The notes under the pieces are model-generated. The model saw only the letters and a program-made list of their open reading frames with translations, was not told the origin of the DNA and made no database searches. The position numbers and the translations under genes are program-made. This document shows positions 2,601-39,385 of a DNA stretch of 64,000 nt, piece by piece. The DNA lies in assembly GCA_963789635.1 (NCBI GenBank), contig CAWBLF010000003.1:140364-204363 (forward strand), given 5' to 3'. Position 1 is the first letter of the stretch. Each line of letters starts with the position of its first letter. Source of the stretch: an uncultured bacterium (GTDB taxonomy: Bacteria; Patescibacteriota; Minisyncoccia; Phycocordibacterales; Zambryskibacteraceae).

Positions 2601-2672
2601 CCTCGGCATGGTTGTTATCGAGGCTTAGCCTTGAGAATTGAAACTAAGGCTAAGCCCTCGGTAACCATATGT
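2583..2672. repeat. CGAGG/CCTCG-core modular palindromic repeat cluster (copy region R1)
   Basis: gaggcatagcctcgg ... cgaggcttagccttgagaattgaaactaaggctaagccctcgg. The middle part is the reverse complement of the module ccttagtttcaa(a)ttctcaaggctaagcctcg seen at 26729 and 31639. Overlaps the rpe stop codon. Confidence 0.8.
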
Positions 2673-11310: not shown

Positions 11311-11319
11311 CCGGGAATC

Positions 11320-11347
11320 TTGCAAAAAATCCGGTTTCTGGTATATT
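11320..11347 (+). promoter_or_regulatory. sigma-70-like promoter of rpmE (TTGCAA - 16 nt - TATATT)
   Basis: The -10 box ends 9 nt upstream of the ATG at 11357. No SD sequence. Confidence 0.45.
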
Positions 11348-11356
11348 CATAGGCCT

Positions 11357-11575
11357 ATGAAAGCAGATATTCATCCAAAATATTTTCCAAACGCCACAGT
11401 TACCTGTGCTTGTGGAAACACATTTAAAATCGGCTCAACCAAAGAAAATATAGAGGTCGAAATTTGTTCTGCCTGTCATCCGTTTTATACTGGAAATGAC
11501 AAGGTCTTGGATACCGCCGGCCGTGTAGAAAAGTTCAAAGCAAAGCGCGCTGGAGCGAAAGCAAAGAAGAAGTAA
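11357..11575 (+). CDS. rpmE: 50S ribosomal protein L31
   Basis: MKADIHP start, and CxC ... [10 protein letters not shown] zinc-ribbon motifs. Confidence 0.95.
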
Positions 11576-11590
11576 CGAATAGCAATTGAC

Positions 11591-11643
11591 TCATAACTTG
11601 CAACAAATAACGCAGTAAGTTGTTTGGAGTTATGGGTTTTTTG
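11591..11643 (+). terminator. rho-independent terminator after rpmE
   Basis: ctcataact...agttatggg stem with an inner aacaa/ttgtt helix, followed by a tttttt run. Confidence 0.6.
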
Positions 11644-11673
11644 TTATAAGTTTAATGTTATCTGCTACCTGTT

Positions 11674-12653
11674 ATGGACCTAACAAAATACAAAGAAAAT
11701 CAAAAGACAAGCTATTTGGCACAGCTTCTGGAGGAGCTTCTTAAAAAAGAAAGTGATCTTTTGGCGTTGGCGGAAAGTGATGTGACCATGAAGGAAATGG
11801 CGGATGAAGAGCTCAAACATATTGTCGAGGAAAAACAAAATCTTATTGCTCAAATGGATAACATTTTGACGGTTGAAGAGAAGAAGAGTCCCGCGACGGC
11901 GGGGCAAACGAGGTCATTCTCGAGGTGCGTGCCGGTGCTGGCGGGGAAGAGGCGGCTCTTTTTGCTGAGATGTTGGCTATTATGTATCAAAAATATTCCG
12001 AAACCAAAGGTTGGAGTTTCAAAATACTAGATTTGTCAAAGAGTTCGCTTGGCGGTTACAAGGAAGGTTCTTTTGAAATTCACGGCAAAGGTGTTTATCA
12101 AGAACTTCGTTATGAGACGGGTGTCCATCGCATCCAGCGTGTCCCCGAAACTGAGAAAAGCGGACGGGTCCACACTTCTACCGCTTCTGTGGCGATATTG
12201 CCAATTCGCAAAAAGGTGAAATTTGAAATCAACCCGGCCGATTTGGAGATCGAAACATCGCGTTCGGGCGGAAAGGGCGGGCAGAATGTCAATAAGGTTG
12301 AAACTGCGGTAAGAATTGTGCACATACCTACTGGGCTCGATGTTCGTTCCACCAACCAACGCAGTCAGGGTGCCAACAAGGAAAAAGCGATGGAGATTTT
12401 GACCGCAAAACTCGCGGCTTTAGAAGAGGAAAGAGAAGAAAAGAAGCATTCGGCGGAGCGCAAAAGCCAAATCGGAACTGGTGATCGTTCCGAAAAGATT
12501 CGCACCTACAACATCCTTCAGGACCGTATTACCGATCACCGTCTCAAAGAGTCGTGGCATAATATTCCCCTTATTTTGGGAGGAAAATTGGACCCGATTA
12601 TTGCTGCTTTGCAGGCAAGAAAGGCCGAAGAGGAAGATGGTCAGCCGGTGTAA
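11674..12653 (+). CDS. prfA: peptide chain release factor 1, interrupted by an apparent 1-nt deletion (-1 frame change) near 11890-11892
   Basis: N-terminal 72 codons are in frame 1. The rest is in frame 3 from about 11892: NEVILEVRAGAGGEEAALFA, RVPETEKSGRVHTS, GGQNVNK, GTGDRSEKIRTYN. Adding one C to the CCC at 11890-11892 restores ...EEKKSPRDGGANEVILEV... Confidence 0.85.
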
Positions 12654-14624: not shown

Positions 14625-14700
14625 GCCGCCTTAGCTCAGTTGGTAGAGCAACACTTTTGTAAAGTGAAGGTCCTCGGTTCGAGTCCGAGAGGTGGCTCCA
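14625..14700 (+). tRNA. tRNA-Thr (anticodon UGU), CCA encoded
   Basis: Hand-folded cloverleaf. Acceptor stem GCCGCCT/AGGTGGC with one G-U pair. D arm GCTC-AGTTGGTA-GAGC. Anticodon loop ttTGTaa, anticodon at 14658-14660. T arm CTCGG-TTCGAGT-CCGAG. Discriminator T followed by CCA. Confidence 0.9.
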
Positions 14701-14735: not shown

Positions 14736-14864
14736 TGCCATCTCAGCAAGACAGTCAATACTGTCTTGCGTTCGGACTCGAAAGTCGGAGACATATTTCT
14801 TCAGCAGAAGAAATAGTTGAGACGGGGTCGCGAAATTTTGCTGTGATGACAAGCAAAATATTCG

Positions 14865-14888
14865 TGGCCGAATCCGAGAGGTAGCTCA
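14865..14888 (+). repeat. degenerate direct copy of the tRNA-Thr 3' end (possible att-type footprint)
   Basis: cgaatccgagaggtagctca compared with tRNA cgagtccgagaggtggctcca: a 10-nt exact core plus flanks, 17 of 19 matching. Confidence 0.45.
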
Positions 14889-17717: not shown

Positions 17718-18494
17718 ATGAAAGAGCACATGCAAAATGAAAATAGTGATATTGGACCAAAAGTAGATTTGAGAACTGTTTATGATGAAGACGCGAAAAT
17801 TGCGGAAATAGAAAAACGTGAAAATTTTCTTCGCACGGTTGGTTTTTCTGATGAGGAGATTATGAGGTTAAAGGATAATAGGCCGACATTATATGATATT
17901 GTCAATGTTCAAAATACTTTGGATTCGTTGAAACAAATCGGTTTTACCAATCCCGAAAAGATGATCACCAGTTTACCAGCTATTTTGGGCTACAACATCG
18001 AGAACATCAAACAAAAAATCGATGACCTCAAGGTTCTCGGTTTTACCAATCCCGAAAAGATGATCACCAGTTTATCAGCTATTTTGGGCTACAACATCGA
18101 GAACATCGAAAGGAAAATAAGCGCTTTGGAAACAATTTTTAAACTTTACAGTATAAGAGTTGATGTCAAAGAATTTATTGAAAAAGATTTGTTAATATTG
18201 GGTGCAAAAATTGATAAGGTATGGATTATAGCAAGGGCGTTACGTAATCTTGGTATGAATCCAAGTGATATAAACAATGTGTTTCTTTCACGATTACGAT
18301 CATCCAATATAACAGATACCACGGCGGCTCTTACGACCTTGTTGGCGGAGATGAAAAAGGACGTTATTCCAGCGGAAATATTCAAAGCTATTCGTGTTGC
18401 CAAAAAATTGCCTAAAGATGAAAAACAACAGATTATTGAGTCACAGAAAAGTTCTAAGTTGGCAAGACGATACAAACGAGGATATGGCAGTTAG
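17718..18494 (+). CDS. mTERF-like helical repeat protein (hypothetical)
   Basis: Repeats of the form LGFTNPEKMITSLPAILGYNIENIKQKIDDL resemble the mTERF motif (GFs..ei..ii...P.iLg.s.e.nl..ki..L). This is a motif-level call only. Confidence 0.5.
   Translation: MKEHMQNENSDIGPKVDLRTVYDEDAKIAEIEKRENFLRTVGFSDEEIMRLKDNRPTLYDIVNVQNTLDSLKQIGFTNPEKMITSLPAILGYNIENIKQKIDDLKVLGFTNPEKMITSLSAILGYNIENIERKISALETIFKLYSIRVDVKEFIEKDLLILGAKIDKVWIIARALRNLGMNPSDINNVFLSRLRSSNITDTTAALTTLLAEMKKDVIPAEIFKAIRVAKKLPKDEKQQIIESQKSSKLARRYKRGYGS
17949..18118 (+). repeat. 99-bp-period tandem duplication inside the mTERF-like gene
   Basis: 71 nt at 17949-18019 recur at 18048-18118 with one mismatch (tttaccagc versus tttatcagc). 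Confidence 0.9.
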
Positions 18495-18506
18495 CATTTT
18501 AATGCA

Positions 18507-20897
18507 ATGAAAATATCATACGCATGGCTACAGGATTACTTTGAAAAACCGCTTCCAACTCCGGAAAAAATTTCGGATCTTTTGACTGAGCACGCGTTTG
18601 AAGTGGAATCAATAGACAAAGTGGCTGGCGACAGGGTGCTTGACGTCAAGGTGTTGCCCGACAGGAGTCATGATTGTCTTTGCCATATTGGCATTGCCAG
18701 AGAAGTGGCGCTTCTTGCCAATATCAATCTAAAACCAACTGTCAACAATTCGGAATTGCTTTCAGTGCCCGAATCAAATGTTTTGCGAGTAGAAGTGGAT
18801 GATTCACACCTTTGTAAACGTTTTACCGCGCTTGTAATTGAAAATATAGAAGTAAAGGAAAGTCCAGGTTGGCTCAAAGATCGTCTCAAAGCTATCGGCC
18901 AGCGATCTATAAACAACGTGGTGGATGTCACAAACTATGTGATGTTTGCCATTGGTCAACCGCTCCACGCCTACGACCGTGAACTTTTGAAGGAAGCTGA
19001 TGGTGGATGGAAAATTGTAGTGAGAAAGGCCAATGAAGGTGAGACGCTTTTGGCTCTGGATAACAAAGAATACAGTCTTAGAGGGGGAGAATTGACCATT
19101 GTTGACGGTAATACCGATGGGGTGTTGGGCATTGCGGGCATCAAAGGGGGAAAGGCAAGTGAAATTTCCAAACATACCAAAAACATTATTCTCGAATCCG
19201 CTAATTTTGAACCGGTAAATATTCGCAAGACAGCAAAAGCAATCGGACTTCGCACCGATGCATCCATCCGTTTTGAAAATGAAATCACACCAGAACTTAC
19301 TGTGCTTGCGTTAAAAATAGCTGCGGACCTTCTTTTGGAAATTGCAAATACGGAAGAAACACGGATTGAAGGAATGGTCGATATTTACCCGCGCAAGGCA
19401 TCGTTATTTAAAGTGGGTGTTTCACTTTCTGAAATTCAAAATATTTTGGGTATGGGTATTTCTCAAAAAGAAGTTGAAGATATATTTAAAAGGCGTGGCT
19501 ACACGTGGAGTATGGTTAATCCGCGAGAAATCATATTGACTCTGGCCAGACAGTTGGTGGGAGTGCCATATAAATACGCTTCCAGTGTTCTATATGATGC
19601 ACCCAGAACTTTCGATTGTTCTTCCTTTATCAATTATCTGTATGTGCAATCCGGAGTGGCGTTGCCTAGGATTACCGCGGACCAGTTTGTATTTGGGCAG
19701 TCCATTGAAAAAGATGAACTAAAACCCGGTGATTTGATTTTTTCCCAGTCATCTTCCTCCGATGAAGAAAAGGAATTTACTTTTATAGCCACCGGTGAAA
19801 AAATGCGACAAAAGGTAAAACACACAAAGACATTTGAATTTCTCCCCGGTACCGATGTGCCAGGCGGGGTTGATCACCTTGGCCTTTACGCGGGTGACAA
19901 CAAAGTGATTCATTCATCAAGTGCAAGCCGGGGTGTGGTAGAGGAGTCGCTCGGAGAAACAAAAGCTTTCCAAAATATAGTAGGTTATCGAAGGATGCTT
20001 CAAAGCGAAGAATCCAGATTTGTCGTTGTCGTGCCGGCTGAACGATTGGATTTGCGAATCAAGGAAGATTTGATTGAGGAGATCGGAAGGATTTACGGAT
20101 ATGATAATCTAAAGTCAAAACCTATAAAACTATTCGAAGAAAACGTCGCTGTAAACAAAAAAGAGTATTGGGTAAATTCTTTCAAGAAATTTTTTGTTGA
20201 CGAAGGTTTTTCCGAAGTTATTACATATGCATTTCGCAACAAAGGGGAAGTGGAACTTGCTAACCCCATAGCCAAGGACAAACCATACTTAAGAGCAAAT
20301 CTAAGCGAAGGTTTGTCGGAAGCTCTTGAGTCCAACTCTCACAATATGGAACTTCTGGGTCTTACAGAAGTGAATATTTTTGAAATAGGAAATATTTTTA
20401 CCAAAAAACACGAATATACTTCACTGGCTTTTTCTTCCAACAATCCTGATAAAATCAAAAAAAATATTTTTGAAAAATTTGGTTTTGAAATATCATTTGT
20501 TAGCAACGGTAAAATTTATGAAACAGATTTTGATAAAGTTTTGGAAGAACTTCCTGAATCAAGTAAACCTTTTGAGTATTCCGAAAATGATAATTTAAGT
20601 TTTGTGCCATTTTCGCAATACCCGTTTGTTCTGCGAGACCTAGCGGTGTTTGTGCCGGAAGGAAATAACCAAAACGAAATCATCGACACGGTAAAAGCCG
20701 AGTCATCGGGTTTACTGGTATCTCATCGTCTTTTCGATACGTTTACCAAAGAGTTTCCGGATGGCAAGAAGACTTCTTTTGCGTACAGGTTGGTATTTCA
20801 GTCAAAGGAGAAAACGTTGACCGATGATGAAGTCAACCCGATCATGGAAAAAACAGCCAAAATTTTGAGCAAAAAAGAAGGTTGGCAAGTGAGGTGA
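18507..20897 (+). CDS. pheT: phenylalanine--tRNA ligase beta subunit carrying an inserted NlpC/P60 domain
   Basis: B1 start MKISYAWLQDY, then B3/4, B5, DLIEEIGRIYGYDN, and a C-terminal FDX-ACB-like end. An NlpC/P60-like segment lies at about 19518-20012. Confidence 0.9.
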   Translation: MKISYAWLQDYFEKPLPTPEKISDLLTEHAFEVESIDKVAGDRVLDVKVLPDRSHDCLCHIGIAREVALLANINLKPTVNNSELLSVPESNVLRVEVDDSHLCKRFTALVIENIEVKESPGWLKDRLKAIGQRSINNVVDVTNYVMFAIGQPLHAYDRELLKEADGGWKIVVRKANEGETLLALDNKEYSLRGGELTIVDGNTDGVLGIAGIKGGKASEISKHTKNIILESANFEPVNIRKTAKAIGLRTDASIRFENEITPELTVLALKIAADLLLEIANTEETRIEGMVDIYPRKASLFKVGVSLSEIQNILGMGISQKEVEDIFKRRGYTWSMVNPREIILTLARQLVGVPYKYASSVLYDAPRTFDCSSFINYLYVQSGVALPRITADQFVFGQSIEKDELKPGDLIFSQSSSSDEEKEFTFIATGEKMRQKVKHTKTFEFLPGTDVPGGVDHLGLYAGDNKVIHSSSASRGVVEESLGETKAFQNIVGYRRMLQSEESRFVVVVPAERLDLRIKEDLIEEIGRIYGYDNLKSKPIKLFEENVAVNKKEYWVNSFKKFFVDEGFSEVITYAFRNKGEVELANPIAKDKPYLRANLSEGLSEALESNSHNMELLGLTEVNIFEIGNIFTKKHEYTSLAFSSNNPDKIKKNIFEKFGFEISFVSNGKIYETDFDKVLEELPESSKPFEYSENDNLSFVPFSQYPFVLRDLAVFVPEGNNQNEIIDTVKAESSGLLVSHRLFDTFTKEFPDGKKTSFAYRLVFQSKEKTLTDDEVNPIMEKTAKILSKKEGWQVR

Positions 20898-26559: not shown

Positions 26560-26990
26560 AAGGCTAAGTCTCGAATGTGATTATGATTGTAAATTCCCGA
26601 GGAATCGCCCTAAAATAGGTCACCGAGGACTTAGCAAAAGTATTTTTCTGGTGAAAAATCTTTTTCCCATACCTCGTCCCGCCTTTGCGGGACTCCGGTC
26701 TTGCGAAGCTCCAAGTATTCGCTTCTCACCTTAGTTTCAAATTCTCAAGGCTAAGCCTCGATGCCTTAGGTCACTGACGATAAATTCCCGAGGAATCGCC
26801 TAAATACAGGCCCTCTAATTGTGTATCCGAATAGGTCACCGAGGACTTAGCCTTAGTTTCAAATTCTCAAGGCTAAGCCTCGATGCCTTAGGTCACTGAC
26901 GATAAATTCCCGAGGAATCGCCCTAAAATAGGTCACCGAGGACTTTAAGCCTCGATGCCTAAAGGCAAGGCGAAACCTCGAGAATTTACA
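26560..26990. repeat. largest array of the CGAGG/CCTCG-core modular repeats (R4), including one 151-bp element and a 72-bp unit repeated at 122-bp period
   Basis: Modules taggtcaccgaggactta, aaattcccgaggaatcgcc, ccttagtttcaaattctcaaggctaagcctcgatgcctta and ggcgaaacctcgagaattt, in several copies. 26729-26800 equals 26851-26922. Confidence 0.9.
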
Positions 26991-29900
26991 AGGCTTTGGC
27001 CTTTTCGGCGATGAGACTGATGTCACCGTTTCTTTTGGAAATTTTGGCAAAAATACCAATGCATTTTTCCTTTTGAAAAAGATCTTTAAATTCGACCAAT
27101 GTGCGCGGGAAGACGACCAACTCTATTGATCCTGTCATATCAGTAAAACGAGTAAACAGCATACGTTCGTTGTTTTTGGTAACGACATCTCGCACTTCTT
27201 CCACAAACCCTGCTATGGCCACGCTGGCTCCCTCACGAGGACTTGCCAGCACCTCTGCAATTGTCACTCCCTTGCCTTTAATTTTTTCTTGATATTTGTC
27301 CAATGGATGGCCGGAGATATAAAGGCCAAGCAGTTCTTTTTCCCAGGCCAGTTTGTCTTCGTTGGTGGCCGGTGGCGTAGGGCGGAGAGAAATGTCAGGA
27401 GCAGATTTTTCTCCCGCAATACCAAACAAAGAATCTTGATTTTTCGGACCCTGCATTCTTTCTTTGTGATATTCCAAAAGGAATTCCAAGTTGCCAAGAA
27501 GCGAACCGCGTTCGCCCAGGTCATCCATGGCGCCACATTTGATAAGCGCTTCAAAAGATTTTTTATTTAAATTGCGATCCTTGATGCGGTCCAAAAAATC
27601 TGCAAGTGAAGAAAATTGTCCATTCTTTTTGCGTTCTTTGACAATATAATCCGCTATGCCTTCACCAAAATTCTTGATGGTAGTTAATCCAAAACGGATT
27701 TTGTCTTCTTCGCCTTCCTTGCGGACCACCGAAAATCCCTGATAACTTTCGTTTACAGACGGAGGAAGAACAGGAATCTTCATACGCTTGCATTCGTTTA
27801 TGAATTCACCAATTTTTTCAATGTTTCCGGAATCAGCCGTCAGAACTGCGGACATATAAATAGCGGGATGATGTGCTTTGAGATAAGCGGTCTGATAGGC
27901 CACGAGGCCATACGAAGCCGCGTGAGCCTTGTTGAAACCGTATCCTTGAAATGGCTCAAAAAGTTTCCACATTTCTTCCGCTTTTGCTTTTGAAAGACCG
28001 CCATGTTTTATGCATCCATCTACGAAAATAATGTGTTGTTTGGCCATTTCTTTCGGAATCTTTTTACCAACGGCTTTGCGAAATTTATCCACTTCACCCC
28101 AAGTGTATCCGGCGACATTGATAGCGGTCATAAGCAAATCATCCTGGTAAACTAGCACTCCATAAGTGGGGGCCAAGAAATCTTTCATTTTTGGGTGTTT
28201 GTAAATTATCGGCTTTAATCCGTGCTTGCGGGCAATATATTCATTTATATTGTCCATTGGTCCCGGACGGTAAAGCGCTACCATGACATTGATGTCGTCA
28301 ATGGTTGTGGGTTTTAGGTCTGTCAGATAACGCGTCATCCCGTCGCCGTTTAATTGGAACAAACCTTCTGTTTCTCCGCGCGACAAAAGTTCAAAAGTTT
28401 TTTTGTCATCAAGAGGAATTTTTGTGATATCCAATACGGCGTTTTCGATTGCTTCAATGCGCTCGATCGTATCTGCGATGATGGAAAGATTTTTGATTCC
28501 CAAAAAGTCAAATTTCAACAAGCCCGCTTCTTCAATGGAATGCATATCATATTGGGTGATGATTTTTCCTTCTTCTTTTGAATCAAGCTGAAGCGGTGTG
28601 TAGTTCGTAAGCGCCGTTGGAGCGATGACGACGCCGGCGGCATGGACAGAGATGTGTCGGGCGCATCCTTCAATTTTTTTAGCTAAATTTATTATTTCCT
28701 TTGTGTCGGTTTCGGTGTCGTAAGCCGCTTTGAGTTCTGGCACCAGTTCAAAGGCATGATCTATGGTCATGGGGAATCCTTGTGAACCCATTGGAATAAG
28801 TTTGGCGATTCTGTCTCCTATGGTGTAAGAGTAGCCGAGAGCGCGGGTAACATCGCGTACGGCCCCACGCGCCATCATTGTGCCGAAAGTTCCCACTTGC
28901 GCCACTTTGTCTACTCCATATTTTTGTCTGGCATATTCTATTACCTCGTCGCGACGGTCGTCGGCCAGGTCAAGGTCAATATCGGGAGGGGACGGGCGTT
29001 CGGGATTGAGGAATCTCTCAAAAGGAAGATTGTATGTAATTGGGTTCACCGTAGTGATACCGGTCAGAAAGCTGATCATAGAGCCGGCCGCTGAACCTCT
29101 GGTGTTTGTGAGGATTTTGTTTTCATGAGCAAAGCGAATAAGGTCTGCGACAACAAGAAAATATGGTTCATAACCCTTGGCGCCTATAATTTCCAGTTCA
29201 TAATCTATTCGTTTTTGAATTTCTACGGAATTTTCTATGCCGTGAGTTATCAGTCCTTCCATTGCCAATCGCCGTAGCTCTGCCGCGGATGTTAATCCCG
29301 ACTCTACCGTGAATGAAGGAAAAACCCATTTTCCAAGATTCAGCTTAAGATCACATCGGTCAATAATTTTCTGAACGTTTGCGAGAGCTTCCGGTAAATC
29401 GGCAAAAAGTTCGTTGGCTCTTTGTTGGTTGATAAATGAAAAATCTTCATTTTGTTCGGTATCGGCGCGTTCGCGAATGCCCCCATTCTGAATGGAGAGA
29501 AGTGTTTCCCTTGCGGTTTTATCTTCCGGGTCCAGGTAGTACACATCGTGGGCCGCCACAATGGGAACATTTTGTTTGTCGGCAAAAGCGACAAGTGCTT
29601 TCATTCGTCCCTCATGGCCTTCTATTTCATGGTGGTGTGTAACTTCAATAAAAAAATCGTCACCAAATATCCTTTTGTACCATTTTGTTATCTCTATGGC
29701 TTTGTCAGGTTCACTGCCTCGTAAAATACTGGCAATTTCTCCTGAAAAAGAAGGTGAAATGCATATGAGCCCTTCGGAATATCTTTCCAAAATTTCTTTG
29801 TCGATTCTGGGTTTGTAATAAAAACCTTCAAGATGAGCCTTTGTGACAAGAGCAATTAAATTTTTGTAACCGGTTTCATTTTTCGCCAATAGAATCAGTC

Positions 29901-30171
29901 TGTGTCTGACGTTGTCTATTGCAGCTTGTTTATCCGTTCGACTTCGCAATGCGACATAGGCGTCTACACCGAGTATCGGCTTAATTTCTGCATCCAGACA
30001 TTGTTTGTAGAATTCTATGGCGCCATACATATTGCCATTGTCTGTCAAAGCTATGGCCTTCATATTTTCTTTCTTTGCTCGAGAAACAAGTTCTGGGATT
30101 TTTGGCAAAGCATTTAGCAGGCTGTAATGACTATGAACATGCAGATGAGAAAAAGGCTTCATGGCAGGCAT
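26986..30171 (-). CDS. dnaE: DNA polymerase III alpha subunit
   Basis: 1061 aa. N-terminal PHP domain (HLHVHSHYSLL), a polymerase core and a C-terminal OB fold. Confidence 0.95.
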   Translation of the reverse strand: MPAMKPFSHLHVHSHYSLLNALPKIPELVSRAKKENMKAIALTDNGNMYGAIEFYKQCLDAEIKPILGVDAYVALRSRTDKQAAIDNVRHRLILLAKNETGYKNLIALVTKAHLEGFYYKPRIDKEILERYSEGLICISPSFSGEIASILRGSEPDKAIEITKWYKRIFGDDFFIEVTHHHEIEGHEGRMKALVAFADKQNVPIVAAHDVYYLDPEDKTARETLLSIQNGGIRERADTEQNEDFSFINQQRANELFADLPEALANVQKIIDRCDLKLNLGKWVFPSFTVESGLTSAAELRRLAMEGLITHGIENSVEIQKRIDYELEIIGAKGYEPYFLVVADLIRFAHENKILTNTRGSAAGSMISFLTGITTVNPITYNLPFERFLNPERPSPPDIDLDLADDRRDEVIEYARQKYGVDKVAQVGTFGTMMARGAVRDVTRALGYSYTIGDRIAKLIPMGSQGFPMTIDHAFELVPELKAAYDTETDTKEIINLAKKIEGCARHISVHAAGVVIAPTALTNYTPLQLDSKEEGKIITQYDMHSIEEAGLLKFDFLGIKNLSIIADTIERIEAIENAVLDITKIPLDDKKTFELLSRGETEGLFQLNGDGMTRYLTDLKPTTIDDINVMVALYRPGPMDNINEYIARKHGLKPIIYKHPKMKDFLAPTYGVLVYQDDLLMTAINVAGYTWGEVDKFRKAVGKKIPKEMAKQHIIFVDGCIKHGGLSKAKAEEMWKLFEPFQGYGFNKAHAASYGLVAYQTAYLKAHHPAIYMSAVLTADSGNIEKIGEFINECKRMKIPVLPPSVNESYQGFSVVRKEGEEDKIRFGLTTIKNFGEGIADYIVKERKKNGQFSSLADFLDRIKDRNLNKKSFEALIKCGAMDDLGERGSLLGNLEFLLEYHKERMQGPKNQDSLFGIAGEKSAPDISLRPTPPATNEDKLAWEKELLGLYISGHPLDKYQEKIKGKGVTIAEVLASPREGASVAIAGFVEEVRDVVTKNNERMLFTRFTDMTGSIELVVFPRTLVEFKDLFQKEKCIGIFAKISKRNGDISLIAEKAKAL

Positions 30172-30316
30172 TATACCTCATCGGGTGGTGAAAGTTTCAT
30201 TGACGGTGAATATATTCAATTATCTGTTTATAATTTTGAAAAATTGAGTCTATGGTGCTTGATTTCACCGCTTTTATTGAAACAAGATTACCAATTTGGA
30301 GTATAATAAAGTGGAG

Positions 30317-30865
30317 ATGAAATACCATAAAAATCATTACGGTTTTACTCTTGTTGAGCTTCTTGTCGTTTGTGCCATTATCGCCATTCTTGTCGCTGTT
30401 ATTATTCCAAGCATCAATCAATCGCGTGCGCGAGGTCGTGACGCTCAAGTCCGCGCTCAAGTTCAGACAATAAAACTGGCGCTTGCCAGAGCGGCGGCCG
30501 CAAATGTCAGCGAGACATATCCGGGCACAGTCGGCACTTGGTATTGTCTGACTACCACCACTGGGGCTTGCTCCAACTCTTCGTTGAACGCTAATGAGTC
30601 AAATACTTTAAACACCCAGCTCCTTCCATATTTTCCCGGTAATGTTTACCCGCAGGCTCAGGGTGCCGTATCTGGGCAATATCGTTACAATGCTTATGTG
30701 TACAACCCGTATGATGCCGGCATAAAAATTCCCGGATACAATGGTCCGATTTTGCTTTGGTGGCAAGAAAAAACTATACAACCAGCTGATTGTAACGGTA
30801 CTATTTTTGTAGGAACCGGAGTGGATGCAGGATTGAACTATTGCTACGAAAGACTTGCTCAATGA
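30317..30865 (+). CDS. type IV pilin / pseudopilin with a prepilin-type N-terminal cleavage-methylation motif
   Basis: MKYHKNHYG|FTLVELLVVCAIIAILVAVIIPS. GGAG lies 1 nt upstream of the ATG at 30317. Confidence 0.8.
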   Translation: MKYHKNHYGFTLVELLVVCAIIAILVAVIIPSINQSRARGRDAQVRAQVQTIKLALARAAAANVSETYPGTVGTWYCLTTTTGACSNSSLNANESNTLNTQLLPYFPGNVYPQAQGAVSGQYRYNAYVYNPYDAGIKIPGYNGPILLWWQEKTIQPADCNGTIFVGTGVDAGLNYCYERLAQ

Positions 30866-31458
30866 GGCAAAACTACGCAAGCGTGAATGGAATTTTGGGA
30901 ATTGATGAGGCGGGCAGAGGGCCATTGGCCGGGCCTGTCGCGGTCGGGGCTGTATATATTCGACCAAAAGCAAAATTATCGTTTTGCGGTTTGAAAGATT
31001 CCAAACAACTTTCGGCTATTGCAAGAGAAGGATGGTTCAACAAAATAAAAAAGTGGCAAAAGGAAAACAAATTGCGATATTCAGTATCCCTTGTTTCCCA
31101 TTCCGTCATCGATAGGGAAGGCGTAGTTTCGGCCATTGATCTGGGTATTAATAGGTGCTTAAAAAAAATTATTGTCCCGCCAAACAAAACTCAGGTGATG
31201 CTCGACGGCGGGTTGGGAGCTCCAACACGATTTATTAATCAAAAAACAATTATTCGGGGCGATGAAAAAATCGCCGTTATTGCATTGGCTTCAATAGTGG
31301 CAAAAGTGACAAGAGACAGACATATGGAAAGAATGTCACTAAAATATCCGAAATATGGTTTTGAAATCCATAAAGGATATGGCACATTGAAGCACAGGAG
31401 GGCAATCAAGAAGTTCGGTCACTCCCGGATTCATAGAAAAACTTTCACGGTTTCCTAG
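30862..31458 (+). CDS. rnhB: ribonuclease HII
   Basis: GIDEAGRGPLAGPV, DSK.L and KGYG motifs. Its ATG overlaps the pilin TGA (ATGA). Confidence 0.9.
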   Translation: MRQNYASVNGILGIDEAGRGPLAGPVAVGAVYIRPKAKLSFCGLKDSKQLSAIAREGWFNKIKKWQKENKLRYSVSLVSHSVIDREGVVSAIDLGINRCLKKIIVPPNKTQVMLDGGLGAPTRFINQKTIIRGDEKIAVIALASIVAKVTRDRHMERMSLKYPKYGFEIHKGYGTLKHRRAIKKFGHSRIHRKTFTVS

Positions 31459-31478
31459 GTTTAATCTTTTAACTTTTT

Positions 31479-31752
31479 TGGTCACCGATTTAATTCCCGA
31501 GCAATCGCCTTAATACAGACAATTTTAGGTCACCGAGGACTTAGCAAAAGTATTTTTCTGGTGAAAAATCTTTTTCCCATACCTCGTCCCGCCTTTGCGG
31601 GACTCCGGTCTTGCGAAGCTCCAAGTATTCGCTTCTCACCTTAGTTTCAAATTCTCAAGGCTAAGCCTCGATGCCTAAAATACAGGCCCTCAAGGCTAAG
31701 CCTCGATATCTAAATGCAAGGCGAAACCTCGAGAATTTAAGGCTGAGCCTAG
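31479..31752. repeat. CGAGG/CCTCG-core modular repeat cluster (R5) containing the second 151-bp element
   Basis: 31526-31676 is identical to 26616-26766. Flanked by aattcccgagcaatcgcc, tacaggccctcaaggctaagcctcgat and ggcgaaacctcgagaatttaaggc modules. Confidence 0.9.
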
Positions 31753-31802
31753 AATACATTGTAACTTGTGTTTTCTGGCTCATCAGGTATACTCAATTCA
31801 CT

Positions 31803-32993: not shown

Positions 32994-33368
32994 ATGGCCA
33001 CAAGACTAGAGAATCTAAAAATATATCAGATGGCGCGTGAGCTGGAACTTCGGGTTTTTGAATTAACGAAAAGTTTTCCAACCGCAGAAAATTTTAGAAG
33101 CATAGATCAATTGCGCCGTTCGTCTTCATCTGTTACCAATAACATTGCTGAATCTTATAACAAGAAGTCAATAAAGGATAAAATAAGAATTATTAATGAT
33201 ATTGTTAAGGGTGAAGCAAACGAAACAAGGTCTAATCTTGAAATGTTTCAAGAAAAGAAGTTTTTCAAAGACCAAAATCTGATTGATAGATACACAGAAC
33301 TCATAAAAGCAGTCAGCGGATATATAGCATTTCTCAAAACTTCTCAACTTAACAACTTATCAACTTAA
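32994..33368 (+). CDS. four-helix-bundle protein (23S rRNA intervening-sequence protein / S23p / Avd-like family)
   Basis: 124 aa with L.IYQ.A.EL...V..LT..FP and DQLRRSSSSV.NNIAE motifs. Confidence 0.85.
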   Translation: MATRLENLKIYQMARELELRVFELTKSFPTAENFRSIDQLRRSSSSVTNNIAESYNKKSIKDKIRIINDIVKGEANETRSNLEMFQEKKFFKDQNLIDRYTELIKAVSGYIAFLKTSQLNNLST

Positions 33369-33378: not shown

Positions 33379-34075
33379 ATGGACGGTTTTAATCAATTTG
33401 AAGAACGAATAGGTGTGATTTTCGAAAATAAAAACTTGCTCAAGCAGGCGTTTGTTCATCGTTCATATTTAAATGAAAACAAAGAATTTCCTCTAGGCCA
33501 CAATGAACGTCTGGAGTTCCTCGGAGACGCAGTTCTTGAACTGGTGATTACCGACTATCTTTACACCAAATACCCCGAGAAAAACGAAGGAGATATGACA
33601 TCGCTTCGCTCTGCCTTGGTCAACGCCACCGCTCTTCATAAAGTGGGTGCCAGATATTGGTATCAATGACCTACTTCTGCTCTCCCGAGGTGAATCTAAG
33701 GACCTTGGGCGTGCTCGTCAGTACATTCTTGCCAATACAATGGAGGCATTGATTGGCGCCATTTACCTTGACCGTGGATATGATATGGCCAAGAAATTTA
33801 TTTATGAATTCATAACTCCGCTTTTGGACAAAGTGATTGAAGACGAAAGCTGGATTGACTCCAAGAGTTTATTCCAAGAAAAAGCCCAAGATCATGCAGG
33901 GGTAACTCCCGCATATCAAACCTTGAAAGAAACTGGTCCCGACCACGACAAGCATTTCACAGTCGGCGTGTATTTGAAAAATGAACTCATTGCTCAAGGC
34001 GAAGGGGATTCCAAACAGGAAGCGGAGCAGGCAGCAGCTCACAATGCTCTCAAGGCAAAAGGTTGGAATAATTGA
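33379..34075 (+). CDS. rnc: ribonuclease III, interrupted by an apparent 1-nt insertion (+1 frame change) near 33650-33652
   Basis: Frame 1 gives NERLEFLGDAVLEL ... LRSALVNATALHKVGA. Frame 2 continues DIGINDLLLLSRGE ... MEALIGAIYLD plus a C-terminal dsRBD. Removing one base from gcca restores VGADIGIN. Confidence 0.85.
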
Positions 34076-34161: not shown

Positions 34162-36432
34162 ATGCTGCTTAAATCTATAGAAATATCCGGATTCAAGTCT
34201 TTTGCCAAGAAAGATTCTCTCACATTCAATACGCCAATTTCGGCAATTGTCGGTCCAAACGGTAGTGGAAAGTCCAACGTTGCCGAGGCATTTCGCTTCG
34301 TGCTAGGCGAGCAATCTATCAAGAGTCTTCGCGGTAAAAAGGGTGAAGACCTTATATTCAATGGTGCCGGGGAAGGGGCAAGGGCCAACAGAGCTTCGGT
34401 CAAGGTGACATTTGATAATTCCCAGAAAATTTTTGCTTTGGATTTTCCAGAGGTGCAGATAGAGCGTGTGGTTCATCGTGATGGCATCAATGAATATTTG
34501 ATAAACGGCTCACAAGTGCGTTTGCGCGACATCATTGAGCTTCTAGCGGGGGCGCACATAGGCTCATCCGGTCATCACATAATTTCTCAAGGTGAAGCAG
34601 ACAGAATTCTCAATAGCTCTCTGCGTGAACGCAGGGCGATGCTCGAAGACGCTCTTGGTCTAAAAATCTATCAATATAAGCGGGCAGAGAGTGAGCGTAA
34701 ACTAGATAAGACATTAGAAAATATTCAGTCTGTCGAAAGTCTACGCAAGGAAATTGCTCCACATCTTCGTTTTCTGAAAAAACAAGTTGAGAAGATGGAA
34801 AAAGCAGTGAGTATGAAGGATGAACTCAAGAACCTTTCTCGCGAATATCTCAAACGTGAGGATACTTTCATACAAGATTCAAAAAAAGCCATTATGGATG
34901 AACGGAAGCCTCTTTCCGACAAAAAATCCAACCTTGAGAGTGAAATGGCCAAGGCCAAAGAAGTATTGGAGTCGTCGAAGAACAAAGACGAAAAAAGTGA
35001 CAAAATAATTGCGCTTGAGACAAGTATTCGCGATGCGCGAAGCGAGAAAGACCGATTACTCCAAGAGATGGGCAAACTTGAAGGAGAGATTGCATCCGAG
35101 CGCAGAATTCTTGCCAAGCAGAAAGAGATTCTTTCTTCAAATGAACACAAGACGGTTGCGCTTCGAGATGTGGAAGATCTTGTTAAGAAGATAGACGTGT
35201 CAATTGTAGAAGCCGAAAAGAGTGTTGATATTTCTTTTGTAAAAAACACGCTCAACATTTTGCGTTCCACCCTGAATGATTTTATTGGCAGTAAAAAAGA
35301 GGAGACCAATGACACGGTTGTGAAAGAATCAGAAGCCGCTCTTGTTGCACTCGGTAAGACAAAGACGGAAACTGAAACAAAACTTTCAGTAATCAAGACA
35401 AAGGAAGAAGAGCTTCAAAGAGAGTATCAAAGTCTTCAAAAAGACATAGAAAAAGCCAAGGATTCTAGCCGTGATGCGGAAAAAGCACTGTTTCGCATAA
35501 TGTCAGAACAAAACGAGGTATCGGGAGCATTGGCGCTCTTACTTGCACGTGAAGAGGGTCTGCGTACTGTAGAAGAAGATTTCAAAAGGGAACTGGAAGA
35601 GTGCGCAATGCTTGCGGGGAGAGGGGTGTTGGACTTTAAATCCTTCGCTCTCGCTCAGGACAAACCCCCCGAGGTCACGAGAGGTTCGCAGGAAGAACGC
35701 AGACGAAATATTGAGAAAATCAAGATTCGTCTTGAAGAGGCAGGACTTTCTGGAAGTGGAGAAATAATGAAAGAGTTTCAGGAAACATCGGAGCGCGATG
35801 CATTTTTGGAACGGGAGCTGACAGATCTTGATAAATCAGCAGAATCTCTCCACCAGCTTATCGTGGAGCTGGGCGAAAAACTTGATATTGAATTTAAGGA
35901 AGGAATAACAAAAATTAATAAACAATTTGGCGAATTTTTTGCGTTGATGTTTGGTGGAGGCAAAGCCATACTCAATGTCATCAAAGAAAAAAAGAGAATA
36001 AAGAAAGAGACAGACGATCTACTACTGACAACTGACAATGAACAAGAAGAAGAAATAGTTGAGGACGAGGCAACCGAAGATGGCATAGATATTGAAGTGT
36101 CGTTGCCAAGGAAGAAAATCAAAGGATTGGCCATGCTTTCTGGTGGGGAGAGAGCTCTCACATCTATAGCGCTTCTTTTTGCAATATCGCAAGTAAATCC
36201 ACCGCCATTTATCATTCTTGATGAAACGGATGCGGCGCTCGATGAGGCAAATTCCAGAAAATACGGCGATATGGTGGAAAACTTGGCCAAATATTCTCAA
36301 CTAATTTTGATTACGCACAATCGCGAGACGATGTCGCGAGCAGGTGTGATTTATGGAGTGACCATGGGAAGTGCTGGGGTTTCCAAAATTCTTTCTATTC
36401 AATTTGAAGAGGCGGTAGAAGTGGCCAAGTAG
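34162..36432 (+). CDS. smc: SMC-family chromosome partition ATPase, unusually short (756 aa), no recognisable hinge
   Basis: Walker A GPNGSGKSN, signature LSGGERALT, Walker B FIILDETDAALD. A long coiled coil lies between the head halves. Confidence 0.8.
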   Translation: MLLKSIEISGFKSFAKKDSLTFNTPISAIVGPNGSGKSNVAEAFRFVLGEQSIKSLRGKKGEDLIFNGAGEGARANRASVKVTFDNSQKIFALDFPEVQIERVVHRDGINEYLINGSQVRLRDIIELLAGAHIGSSGHHIISQGEADRILNSSLRERRAMLEDALGLKIYQYKRAESERKLDKTLENIQSVESLRKEIAPHLRFLKKQVEKMEKAVSMKDELKNLSREYLKREDTFIQDSKKAIMDERKPLSDKKSNLESEMAKAKEVLESSKNKDEKSDKIIALETSIRDARSEKDRLLQEMGKLEGEIASERRILAKQKEILSSNEHKTVALRDVEDLVKKIDVSIVEAEKSVDISFVKNTLNILRSTLNDFIGSKKEETNDTVVKESEAALVALGKTKTETETKLSVIKTKEEELQREYQSLQKDIEKAKDSSRDAEKALFRIMSEQNEVSGALALLLAREEGLRTVEEDFKRELEECAMLAGRGVLDFKSFALAQDKPPEVTRGSQEERRRNIEKIKIRLEEAGLSGSGEIMKEFQETSERDAFLERELTDLDKSAESLHQLIVELGEKLDIEFKEGITKINKQFGEFFALMFGGGKAILNVIKEKKRIKKETDDLLLTTDNEQEEEIVEDEATEDGIDIEVSLPRKKIKGLAMLSGGERALTSIALLFAISQVNPPPFIILDETDAALDEANSRKYGDMVENLAKYSQLILITHNRETMSRAGVIYGVTMGSAGVSKILSIQFEEAVEVAK

Positions 36433-36440
36433 GTCGACAA

Positions 36441-36590
36441 TAGGTCACCGAGGACTTAAATTCCCAAGGAATTGCTTTAATACAGGCCCTCAATTTTAGG
36501 TCACCGAGGACTTAAATTCCCGAGGAATCGCCTTAATACAGGCCCTCAAGGCGAAACCTCGAGAATTTAAGGCTAAGCCTCGATGCCTTA
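36441..36590. repeat. CGAGG/CCTCG-core repeats (R6): one half element (36441-36493) plus one full 95-nt nested hairpin element (36496-36590)
   Basis: ttaggtcaccgaggactta-aattcccgaggaatcgcc-ttaatacaggccctcaa-ggcgaaacctcgagaatt-taaggctaagcctcgatgcctta. Confidence 0.9.
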
Positions 36591-36648
36591 ATTATCCTTC
36601 ACAAAGCTCAGGATTAAGAAAAATATAGTCACTTCGCTCCTTATTTTT

Positions 36649-39138: not shown

Positions 39139-39146
39139 ATTATCGG

Positions 39147-39385
39147 TAGGTCACAGAACAACGCAAAATTAAATTTTAGGTCACCATTAAATTCCCGATT
39201 AGGTCACCGAGGACTTAAATTCCCGAGGAATCGCCTTAATACAGGCCCTCAAGGCGAAACCTCGAGAATTTAAAGCTAAGCCTCGATGCCTTAGGTCACT
39301 GACAATAAATTCCCGAGGAATCGCCTTAATACAGACAATTTTAGGTCACCGACTTAGTTTCAAATTCTCAAGGCTAAGTCTCGGA
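39147..39385. repeat. CGAGG/CCTCG-core repeats (R7): several partial modules plus one full 95-nt element (39199-39293)
   Basis: 39199-39293 differs from 36496-36590 at one base. Additional taggtcac starts at 39147, 39177, 39292 and 39342. Confidence 0.9.

Follow-up and report, generated by a model that had tools for sequence, protein, structure and literature searches.

What are the two non-coding 151-bp sequences that recur on either side of dnaE in an uncultured bacterium of the candidate phyla radiation, and how did they come to be the same? We analyzed a 64,000-nt stretch of contig CAWBLF010000003.1 (hereafter the window), for which an original prediction had proposed MITE-like elements made identical by recent transposition or gene conversion, or else a strongly constrained RNA. 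The answer that we favor, with a probability of about 0.6, is that the 151-mer is nested non-autonomous mobile DNA, i.e., the core of a mini-element that integrates in tRNA T loops, embedded in a REP/MITE-like hairpin and recently copied.

A nested unit in mosaic intergenic arrays

The two copies, at 26616-26766 and 31526-31676 (both plus strand), agreed at all 151 positions and run in direct orientation, with their starts 4910 bp apart, and their borders were sharp, the match continuing for 0 bases beyond the ends on either side. Copy 1 lies between thrS and dnaE (both minus strand) and copy 2 between rnhB and rpmF (both plus strand), antisense and sense, respectively, to the neighboring genes. 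Between them are the genes originally named, encoding DnaE (26986-30171, minus), a prepilin-type N_methyl protein (30296-30865, plus), and RNase HII (30841-31458, plus). The imperfect terminal inverted repeats are genuine and pair as an outer stem in both RNA and DNA folds, and the folds of the 151-mer were more stable than all 200 shuffles, whether as RNA (z = -4.8 for the plus strand and -5.5 for the minus strand) or as DNA (150 of the 151 bases, 26617-26766; z = -5.1). The MITE-like layout (short, non-coding, with imperfect inverted ends) was borne out; no target-site duplication was found at the borders of the 151-mers, and neither has a tRNA gene or a flanking direct repeat beside it.

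The 151-mer is a nested unit, a 57-nt hairpin repeat with a 94-nt insert, rather than a single element. An empty unit that had escaped the original prediction (26832-26888, plus) equals the 151-mer minus this core, the 20 bases at its start and the 37 at its end matching both core flanks exactly. In the folds of copy 1, the left arm "A" (TAGGTCACCGAGGACTTAGC, 26616-26635; the same 20 nt also open the empty unit at 26832) is base-paired to the right arm, and the rest of the hairpin, a loop and then the right arm GCTAAGCCTCGATGCCT, follows the core at 26730-26766, equal to 26852-26888 of the empty unit. The core itself spans 26636-26729 in copy 1 and 31546-31639 in copy 2; it therefore occupies two hairpins and is missing from an identical third. 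A DNA hairpin (-12.7 kcal/mol, z = -4.3) is also formed by the 57 nt at 26836-26892, which are shifted by 4 nt relative to the empty unit. Core sub-patterns of 23, 30, and 40 nt, with up to 3 mismatches tolerated, matched only within the two 151-mers (0 matches in 100 shuffles). A relative with 85% DnaE identity shares the gene order of the window, and its orthologous thrS-dnaE spacer carries an empty hairpin, reading ...CATTAGC directly followed by CTTAGTTTCAAAGCCTCAAGGCTAAG...; its hairpins lack the core, and the covariance model R1 (below) found none in 69.5 kb of relatives' sequence, made up of two overlapping copies of this relative's 23-kb locus and the locus of a 70% relative.

Both copies sit within mosaic arrays of ~20-nt modules, also overlooked originally. 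The array around copy 1 (26560-26990, plus) is built of modules A (AGGTCACCGAGGACTT), B (AAATTCCCGAGGAATCGCC), B' (GGCGAAACCTCGAGAATTT), and A' (AAGGCTAAGCCTCGATGCCT), and that around copy 2 spans 31478-31760 (plus). Two further plus-strand arrays hold 95-nt hairpins that are 99% identical to one another, at 36496-36590 (A-B-loop-B'-A', DNA fold z = -5.1; array 36430-36592) and at 39199-39293 (array 39146-39385, which also contains, at about 39340-39385, a unit resembling the 57-mer but with its left arm truncated), while a diverged, coreless hairpin of the 57-mer type lies in inverted orientation at 2613-2665 (minus; repeat I1). In the window these short palindromic modules are strictly intergenic, and all GGTCAC-bearing ones (14/14) are on the plus strand. 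The arrays are far bigger than those in the orthologous spacers of the 85% relative and must therefore have expanded recently. Because other array units are also 95-99% alike, the 100% identity of the 151-mers is not exceptional here, and the evidence agrees with the broader proposal that a mobile repeat was recently copied or converted.

Helices and compensatory changes in the 94-nt core

R1, a model trained on five sequences, scored the copy 1 core, itself part of the training set, at 81.9 bits (E = 1.4e-17). Its first hairpin, hp1 (AAAAG-T-ATTTTTC / GAAAAAT-CTTTT), pairs 26636-26648 with 26653-26664 around a bulged T at 26641 and shows compensatory changes in at least seven sequences. A 3-bp helix (26671-26673 with 26697-26699) encloses hp2 (26676-26682 with 26687-26693), the predicted 7-bp GC hairpin, which is genuine and which elsewhere in the family is swapped for unrelated stems between conserved linkers (GGCA/TGCC, AACTATTTCTTC/GAAGAAATATGTC, and ACGGTTTCGCC/GGCGAAAC-AT-CGT). 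The last hairpin, hp3 (26705-26709 with 26721-26725), is better drawn in a register other than the proposed one: GCGAA/TTCGC leaves only 3-4 bp in two relatives from the unrelated assembly L011, and GAAGC/GCTTC suits the window and both relatives better, with loops of 3 to 11 nt. The core ends in CTCAC(C) at its 3' side.

In a plain MAFFT alignment, hp1 and the 3-bp helix were 94% paired, against 76% in shuffles and 31-51% in slid controls, and both sides changed in 12 of 17 pairs, a count equaled by none of 500 shuffles; in the model-fitted alignment this held for 18 of 24 pairs. Two hairpins, hp1 and hp2, are backed by compensatory changes; the closing helix originally put forward (ggtgaaaa/ttctcacc) is unsupported, as "ggtgaaaa" is the loop plus the 3' strand of hp1 and the helix is weaker in the closest relatives. 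The helices are 90% Watson-Crick, and G.U pairs number 9 on the motif strand versus 6 equivalents on the other, i.e., there is no strand signal; such helices would suit hairpins of DNA no less well than the strongly constrained RNA that had been suggested. The window cores carry degenerate forms of the canonical 5' GTCAC (GCAAAAG) and of the CCCCGC linker (CCCATAC), and they may be inactive relics held identical by conversion.

A gene-less family beside tRNA genes

The 94-nt core belongs to a wider family, apparently an undescribed one of tiny gene-less elements in Paceibacteria. The motif CTCGTCCCGC-N4-GCGGGACTCCGG occurs in MAGs of Paceibacterota and Kaiserbacteria as well as at 13 metagenome loci, and R1 picked up 11 further copies at E <= 2.4e-4 (16 matches in total, window 14781-14868 among them), the untrained matches falling in Paceibacterota and Kaiserbacteria contigs; since members were retrieved by the exact hp2 pattern, this sample is small and biased. 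The hp3 segment of the window is identical over 34/34 nt to L011 1877-1910, and the L011 cores likewise lie inside inverted-repeat hairpins.

The family is linked to tRNA genes in constant orientation, with direct repeats and replacement of the tRNA 3' end. Eleven of the 16 R1 matches lie 60-700 nt downstream of a tRNA gene, seven such genes being involved (Leu, Trp, Lys, Arg, Leu, Gly, and Thr), and the match is antisense to the tRNA at 7/7 tRNA-linked loci; weaker matches follow tRNA-Leu(CAA) and tRNA-Cys. Each tRNA-linked copy has, between tRNA and motif, a hairpin that resembles a terminator and carries A and T tracts. The tRNA 3' end recurs in direct repeats of 15, 22, and at least 30 bp, where 30 bp was the upper limit of the search (about 37 bp as read in L002). 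Their first base is T-loop position C56 in L002, L003, L004, and the window, the four loci where a repeat from position 56 is clear, and T54 in L006, whose displaced repeat is without the final 8 nt of the tRNA; none of at least 11 nt was found at L005 or L013. L003 carries a tandem array of at least three units, each closed by a tRNA-Trp fragment.

The window has its own tRNA-linked member, a diverged core relative not noticed originally, which lies downstream of and antisense to tRNA-Thr(TGT) (14625-14700, plus). This element (14771-14888, minus) comprises, in order, GGCCAC, hp1, GACCCCGTCTC, hp2 (the AACTATTTCTTC/GAAGAAATATGTC variant), TCCGAC, and TTTCGAGTCCGAAC, and includes a displaced tRNA 3' fragment, CGAATCCGAGAGGTAGCTCA, at 14869-14888. 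R1, untrained on this copy, matched 14781-14866 with filters off (E = 2e-4) and 14781-14868 with default filters (E = 2.6e-6). The tRNA-Thr of the window equals that of the relative through T-loop position 58 and differs from position 59 on (G59, encoded CCA), and the displaced copy retains the relative's version (A59 and ...CTCA). Behind the same tRNA-Thr, element content differs in the 85% relative, and the locus of a more distant relative is without an element.

No coding gene lies within the element, no protein is common to the family loci, and neither an integrase nor a transposase turned up anywhere in cis; the 54 non-overlapping window ORFs of at least 80 aa that were scanned contained no recombinase domain, and part of a large serine recombinase was present near L011a only. 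Searches gave no phage or plasmid match.

Proposed mechanism, rival readings, and known systems

In the reading that we favor, the outer layer would be a 57-nt REP/MITE-like palindromic repeat present in several intergenic regions in the genus, and the inner layer a core of three hairpins with conserved single-stranded linkers, from a family of gene-less Paceibacteria mini-elements of about 150-200 bp each. The usual home of this family would be the 3' side of tRNA genes, entered by site-specific recombination within the T loop, where the mini-element would supply its own tRNA 3' end and terminator hairpin and displace the old 3' fragment outward; repeated integration would build tandem arrays. 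In this genome, one core would have lodged in the stem of a 57-nt hairpin, and the composite would very recently have reached a second hairpin by copying or conversion, hence the perfect identity with sharp borders. Mobility would depend on an enzyme acting in trans, most likely a tyrosine-type integrase or another structure-reading recombinase, and this enzyme would recognize the scaffold of hairpins, in which a bulged T and an A.C mismatch are conserved, perhaps in the form of folded single-stranded DNA. Against the mini-element reading, excising a double-stranded circle of ~160 bp is mechanically demanding, and sequence-covarying stems are unlike the protein-bound arm sites of classical attP; further, as the 151-mers have no adjacent tRNA or direct repeat, the T-loop mechanism leaves the entry of the core into the 57-mer unexplained.

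We consider it unlikely that the core instead encodes a small structured RNA or acts as an RNA in cis, with the repeats as copies of that gene. The tRNA-linked form would then be transcribed antisense to the tRNA up to a shared bidirectional terminator and would include a stretch that mimics or complements the tRNA 3' end, which would suggest a role in tRNA metabolism or regulation. Covarying hairpins with conserved single-stranded linkers are a typical functional-RNA pattern, and the intervening terminator-like hairpin, the constant orientation to the tRNA, and fold energies well under those of shuffles all suit it; yet no Rfam family approached its threshold, promoter- and terminator-like sites were no more frequent than in shuffles, the largely Watson-Crick helices carry no strand signal, and the two copies differ in orientation to the surrounding genes. 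Tandem arrays, displaced tRNA fragments, and the variable or missing elements behind tRNA-Thr in the relatives likewise fit insertion rather than a conserved gene.

Slightly less likely is a reading of the repeats as static structural DNA akin to REP/BIME elements (e.g., stabilizing mRNA ends or binding nucleoid or topoisomerase proteins) that gene conversion keeps identical, with the core an old immobile passenger. The strictly intergenic mosaic of palindromic modules, the uniform strand of the GGTCAC modules, the 95-99% identity of neighboring units, the degenerate linkers of the window copies, and the absent target duplication would be expected of such DNA, but the arrays have expanded relative to the 85% relative, the core is present in two hairpins and missing from the identical third, and neither the REP hallmark GTAG nor a RAYT gene was seen. 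An assembly artefact, the core truly lying in one of three identical hairpin arms and threaded into a second by the assembler, seems very improbable: although 151 nt plus repeated flanking modules amount to about the length of one short read, the sequence on either side of each copy is unique, gene order is as in two relatives, the contig carrying them is 269 kb long, and cores inside hairpins recur in L011. In sample ERR12035936, the breaks between independent k=31 Logan contigs coincide with the borders of the repeat (L001 stops at 26619, L019 covers 26916-31532, and L020 begins at 31647), so that site occupancy cannot be confirmed from them.

Several known systems resemble parts of the favored composite. 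Williams (2002) and the Islander database reportedly describe tRNA-targeting islands that use tyrosine integrases, with a T-loop sublocation, and integrase-less derivatives (CIMEs). Like these, the core family inserts at the 3' part of tRNA genes, restores the tRNA with element-borne sequence, leaves the displaced 3' fragment as a direct repeat from the T loop, accretes in tandem, and keeps a fixed orientation; unlike them, it is gene-free at only about 150-200 bp, has a covarying hairpin scaffold in place of protein-binding arm repeats, and has no integrase nearby, and the two 151-mers lie away from tRNA genes. REP/BIME/REPIN elements of proteobacteria are mobilised by RAYT. The window repeats share with them short imperfect intergenic palindromes, mosaic arrays in alternating orientation, and many near-identical copies that break assemblies, but differ in their module signature (CGAGG/CCTCG, with no GTAG head), the CPR host, the lack of a visible RAYT gene, and one unit with a foreign 94-nt structured insert. 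The 151-mer is MITE-like also in its several copies and non-autonomy, but it shows no target-site duplication and its inverted ends are those of a pre-existing hairpin repeat, not of the insert; we know of no related transposase or IS ends.

Folded single-stranded DNA recombination sites include integron attC, IS200/IS605 ends with their PATE derivatives, and CTX-phage attP. As in these, the core stems keep pairing rather than sequence, in nearly all Watson-Crick form and without a strand signal, with a conserved extrahelical base (the bulged T of hp1) and a conserved mismatch, and an inverted target copy could rebuild a target-like duplex once folded. The core lacks the attC consensus GTTRRRY, however, IS200/IS605 elements leave no 13-37 bp repeat, and the family is without a demonstrated IntI, TnpA, or Xer link. 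TIGR arrays (TIGR-Tas) alternate two 8-12-nt repeats with 9-nt variable spacers, yield 36-nt RNAs from their units, and adjoin a Nop-domain gene (PMC12045711). The window arrays have no TIGR period, unique spacers, or Nop or Cas gene; their likeness to TIGR and CRISPR arrays lies in being short-repeat arrays in a CPR genome, and hp2 superficially resembles the hairpin of a CRISPR repeat.

Two identical repeats nested in mosaic arrays

The two 151-mers (copy 1, 26616-26766; copy 2, 31526-31676) match at 151/151 positions in direct orientation with starts 4910 bp apart, in agreement with the original prediction, and their identity stops sharply at each border, with an extension of 0 nt beyond it. 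Sub-patterns from the interior occur at only these two sites with 3 mismatches tolerated, and at none in shuffled sequence. The proposed imperfect inverted ends are real, with TAGGTCACCGAGGACTTAGC pairing with GCTAAGCCTCGATGCCTA in the folds, and the 151-mer folds far more strongly than shuffles do, whether treated as RNA or as DNA. DnaE, a prepilin-type protein, and RNase HII do lie between the copies, as had been read from the sequence, with ThrRS and a NusB-NUDIX protein on the outside. The source contig is 269 kb long, and small proteins together with the best-named relatives of DnaE (Zambryskibacteria, Taylorbacteria, Kaiserbacteria, and Paceibacterota) assign the organism to the Paceibacteria (CPR). 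A pair of identical intergenic repeats is, as such, an ordinary finding. As in MITEs, the 151 nt are non-coding, holding no credible ORF, and exist in several copies, two of them complete and others empty or partial; the target-site duplication of a MITE was not found, there being no direct repeat in the flanks of either copy 1 (...cctaaaa / taggtcac) or copy 2 (...caatttt / aaaataca). Independent k=31 contigs from the same sample end exactly at the repeat borders, as expected of repeats, and because they are broken there they cannot tell a core in both hairpins from a core in one. A gross assembly artefact is disfavored by the unique sequence flanking the copies and by the conservation of gene order.

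The 151-mer is itself nested. A 57-nt unit at 26832-26888 consists of exactly its first 20 and last 37 bases without the 94-nt interior (the core), and forms a hairpin (CGAGG-ACTTAGCCTT / AAGGCTAAG-CCTCG). Similar core-less hairpins lie in the window at 2613-2665 (inverted) and at about 39340-39385, as well as in the orthologous thrS-dnaE spacer and the smc-rnr spacer of a relative that has the same gene order and whose DnaE is 85% identical (hereafter, the 85% relative), and in both genomes the core-less hairpins have the uninterrupted junction TTAGC/CTTAG.

Both 151-mers are embedded in mosaic arrays built from modules of ~20 nt (AGGTCACCGAGGACTT, AAATTCCCGAGGAATCGCC, and their inverted partners), and these arrays are far smaller in the 85% relative. 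Two 95-nt hairpins of the module order A-B-loop-B'-A' (36496-36590 and 39199-39293) are 99% identical to each other. Like REP/BIME repeats, the mosaics are intergenic imperfect palindromes in arrays of alternating orientation (26560-26990 and elsewhere). Modules bearing GGTCAC are all on the plus strand (14/14, from the arrays at 26560-26990, 31478-31760, 36430-36592, and 39146-39385), and GC skew is positive over almost the entire window, which suggests that module orientation is linked to the direction of replication. On the opposite strand, modules B and B' (e.g., 26590-26609 and 26968-26988) have the format CGAWW-CCTCG-7 nt-A, resembling the T-loop, T-stem, and acceptor 3' end of a tRNA; the format also comes near a displaced tRNA-Trp fragment of metagenome locus L003, with CGAGGAATCG common to both. 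As a lead drawn from these likenesses, the mosaics may have descended from tRNA-type attachment sites. The rnhB-rpmF spacer of the window (31459-31800) contains only copy 2 and its mosaic array, and the same interval of the 85% relative (L022 5336-8271) has four extra genes, encoding an HTH_20 protein and three proteins of unknown function; a gene block has been gained or lost at this repeat site.

A family of structured cores

We retrieved relatives of the core by an exact-pattern scan of metagenomes using its GC-rich hairpin (hp2) and flanks, with the loop left free, which yielded 13 loci, so that the family sample is small and depends on a single exact pattern. Among species-representative genomes, this pattern matched two Paceibacterota MAGs and one Kaiserbacteria MAG, plus a chance match in Streptomyces. 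Members have a common order in the orientation of the motif: GGTCAC, a first hairpin (hp1), the linker G(A/G)CCCCGCCTC, hp2, TCCGGC, and a variable segment, within which GGTCAC, hp1, GACCCCGCCTC, hp2, and TCCGGC form the conserved scaffold. The stem of hp1 varies, and a bulged T and an A.C mismatch near its base are kept in most members. The linkers of the 151-mer cores are degenerate, module order differs in the members at L005 and L011, and the 34-nt segment of the third hairpin (hp3) in the window is identical to L011 1877-1910.

A covariance model of the core (R1), trained on five sequences, recovered eleven further copies outside its training set at E <= 2.4e-4, a value to be taken as rough for a home-made model. 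One of these untrained matches lies inside the window on the minus strand (14781-14868). Another R1 match, at 11886-11905, runs antisense within a release-factor coding region and was rejected as chance.

Covariation supports the fold. In a plain MAFFT alignment, hp1 and a 3-bp helix were 94% paired versus 76% in shuffles, and 12/17 pairs were altered on both sides; no shuffle matched this, and slid controls gave 31-51%. In a model-fitted alignment, structure-biased by construction, 18/24 pairs were altered on both sides. The 3-bp helix is GCC/GGC, replaced by ACC/GGT in the window and by GTC/GAC behind tRNA-Thr, and in some members hp2 has been swapped for unrelated stems with the linkers unchanged. 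Against this family, the fold first put forward for the core fared unevenly: its GC hairpin is hp2 of the family, and its third hairpin exists but in a better register (GAAGC/GCTTC) that fits all three closest sequences, whereas its closing helix is unsupported because it was composed of the loop and 3' strand of hp1. Helices are 90% Watson-Crick, wobble pairs number 9 on the motif strand versus 6 on the other, and calling the strand from G.U versus A.C counts gave no signal. Promoter and terminator scans were not above shuffles, strand-specific signs of RNA were not seen, and hairpins at the DNA level are at least as likely as RNA.

Signature of probable integration at tRNA genes

Members of the family are linked to tRNA genes. 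Eleven of 16 significant R1 matches lie 60-700 nt downstream of a tRNA, at seven genes (Leu-TAA twice, Trp, Lys, Arg, Gly, and Thr), all on the strand opposite to the tRNA, with weaker matches behind tRNA-Leu(CAA) and tRNA-Cys. At these seven loci, including tRNA-Thr of the window, the element sits at the 3' end of an intact tRNA, and a terminator-like hairpin always separates tRNA from motif. The 151-mers themselves are not so placed, the nearest tRNA being 12 kb off.

Beyond the motif, the tRNA 3' end recurs as a direct repeat, with lengths of 15 bp, 22 bp, and, at the upper limit of the search, at least 30 bp. The repeat starts at C56 of the T loop in four cases (L002, L003, L004, and the window) and at T54 in L006; this displaced 3' fragment with its crossover in the T loop is a mark of tRNA-targeting elements. 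At L005 and L013, no direct repeat of at least 11 nt was found. An inverted copy of the same tRNA segment follows TCCGGC directly. Units also occur in tandem in L003, with at least three behind tRNA-Trp and two behind tRNA-Leu. The clearest case is the tRNA-Thr of the window, which equals that of the 85% relative through T-loop position 58 and diverges thereafter, and the displaced fragment at 14869-14888 retains the version of the relative; hence the element supplied the 3' end now in place, in the manner of integrase-type attP x attB recombination. At the same tRNA, the 85% relative has other modules (hp1, a 'Y' module, and an hp3-type 'X' module) and lacks hp2, and a more distant relative has no modules there. 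Separately, the tRNA-Pro of L011 (11392-11491) has a perfect 22-bp leader/trailer inverted repeat that prolongs the acceptor stem and may be a processing stem.

Origin, known systems, and neighboring genes

The 151-mer is best read as mobile DNA that is nested and non-autonomous. The core of a mini-element that integrates at tRNA T loops would have lodged in the stem of a genus-specific REP/MITE-like hairpin, and the composite would have been copied to, or converted at, a second hairpin very recently. What weakens this reading is that the 151-mers have neither a neighboring tRNA nor a target duplication and that their linkers are degenerate. A site-specific recombinase, by default guess a tyrosine integrase, probably mobilized the elements in trans, and we infer that the hairpin scaffold is what such an enzyme recognizes, possibly as folded single-stranded DNA. 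The elements, at 150-200 bp without an ORF, lack the integrase gene of classical tRNA-targeting elements, and a scan of 54 non-overlapping ORFs of the window, each at least 80 aa long, detected no domain of a recombinase or transposase. Proteins common to the family loci were likewise not found. ORFs flanking family elements are housekeeping genes, barring a C-terminal fragment of a large serine recombinase (L011 73-891, plus strand) with a Zn_ribbon_recom domain, ~0.8 kb from the family member L011a and the sole recombinase-like sequence seen near any member.

Several known systems share some of these features and differ in others. REP/BIME repeats are marked by a GTAG head and a RAYT (TnpA_REP) gene, whereas the modules here carry CGAGG/CCTCG and GGTCAC without GTAG, and no Y1 transposase (RAYT) was found in the window. 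With its bulged T, A.C mismatch, and covarying stems, hp1 invites comparison with sites used as folded single-stranded DNA (attC and the ends of IS200/IS605). In those systems, attC carries R'/R'' boxes of the form GTTRRRY, IS200/IS605 elements insert at a fixed tetra- or pentanucleotide target without leaving a repeat, and each has a cognate IntI or TnpA; here, in contrast, GTTRRRY boxes were not seen, the tRNA sites do carry long repeats, and neither IntI nor TnpA was found in the window. The bridge or seek RNA of IS110/IS1111 is a structured non-coding end beside a DEDD recombinase gene, with a 2-nt core repeat only, unlike the present elements, which have long direct repeats at tRNA sites and no adjacent ORF that we could find. 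A tRNA-primed retroelement with a primer-binding site is ruled out by the direct repeats, because in L002 and L003 these match genomic sequence past the tRNA and not the mature CCA end. The linkers had suggested a hammerhead, twister, or HDV-like ribozyme, for which neither conserved cores nor an Rfam signal was seen. TIGR arrays combine two alternating 8-12-nt repeats, 9-nt variable spacers, and an adjacent Nop-domain Tas gene (PMC12045711). The architecture here rules out a TIGR or CRISPR array, with no TIGR period and no unique spacers, and no Nop domain was found in window ORFs.

Database searches gave no existing name for the family. Only the tRNA attained its gathering threshold in Rfam 15, from which the family is absent, and scans by E-value, run on four loci as well as on the tRNA-Thr element and the region of the 151-mer, returned only noise that stayed well short of gathering scores. 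Searching GTDB representative genomes for an exact 23-mer gave 0 matches, as did the hp2 pattern in viral contigs; the linker pattern hit at least 120 viral loci, and R1 on 80 of them gave only chance matches in GC-rich coding sequence, none adjoining a tRNA. The 151-mer had no BLASTN match in collections of phages and plasmids, and our literature searches found no description of such elements. What appears to be new is gene-less, structured elements of ~150 bp at CPR tRNA T loops that carry a target-mirroring segment; their class is familiar, that of miniature elements that are non-autonomous and either integrative or REP-like.

The swappable segment repeats, in inverted form, the neighbor of the insertion: for the most part the T loop and 3' strand of a tRNA (six different ones), in others the tRNA terminus, and in the window a hairpin arm. 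The scaffold and this segment could be the working part of a novel type of programmable site-specific mobile element of CPR bacteria whose target is set by the sequence of the element and not by a protein, a reading we consider unlikely, at a probability of roughly 0.15; that the family reflects a new targeting mechanism is in any case the minority view. Recombination would then be structure-guided or guided by RNA or single-stranded DNA, a short element-carried sequence specifying the target, in a logic analogous to IS110 bridge RNAs and folded attC/CTX sites with unrelated sequence. CPR/Patescibacteria have tiny genomes and are usually called poor in mobile DNA. In them, a gene-less family of ~150 bp appears to rewrite tRNA 3' ends, to pile up in tandem, and to seed REP-like mosaics, at which short-read assemblies break. 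Were a recombinase acting in trans to use the scaffold as its substrate, these bacteria would harbor an unrecognized recombination system, the specificity of which its target-matching segment would make directly testable. R1 can be used to annotate these repeats in Paceibacteria MAGs and to flag sites at risk in assembly.

Genes elsewhere in the window have features of their own. RNase III (33379-34075, plus strand), a single 231-aa gene in the 85% relative, is represented here by two ORFs that overlap (33379-33669 and 33647-34075), and a frameshift, pseudogene formation, or an error of sequencing may account for this. The release-factor gene (11311-12653; PCRF and RF-1 domains) is called from profile position 106 only, with 614 nt upstream of the called ORF carrying no gene call and the genes of relatives encoding 322-323 aa, the likely explanation being either the +1 frameshift programmed in prfB or a wrongly called start. 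Between pheS and pheT, an ORF with an mTERF domain (17718-18494, plus strand) contains an internal 99-nt tandem repeat (17938-18118, 94% identical) and is missing in the 85% relative, where pheT follows pheS directly. PheT (18507-20897, plus strand) has an NlpC/P60 peptidase domain inserted between B3_4 and B5, an insertion also present in relatives (L022 and L023). Finally, two PF05635 genes (23S rRNA intervening-sequence protein, an Avd-like four-helix bundle) lie at 865-1236 and 32994-33368, the latter conserved in the relative.
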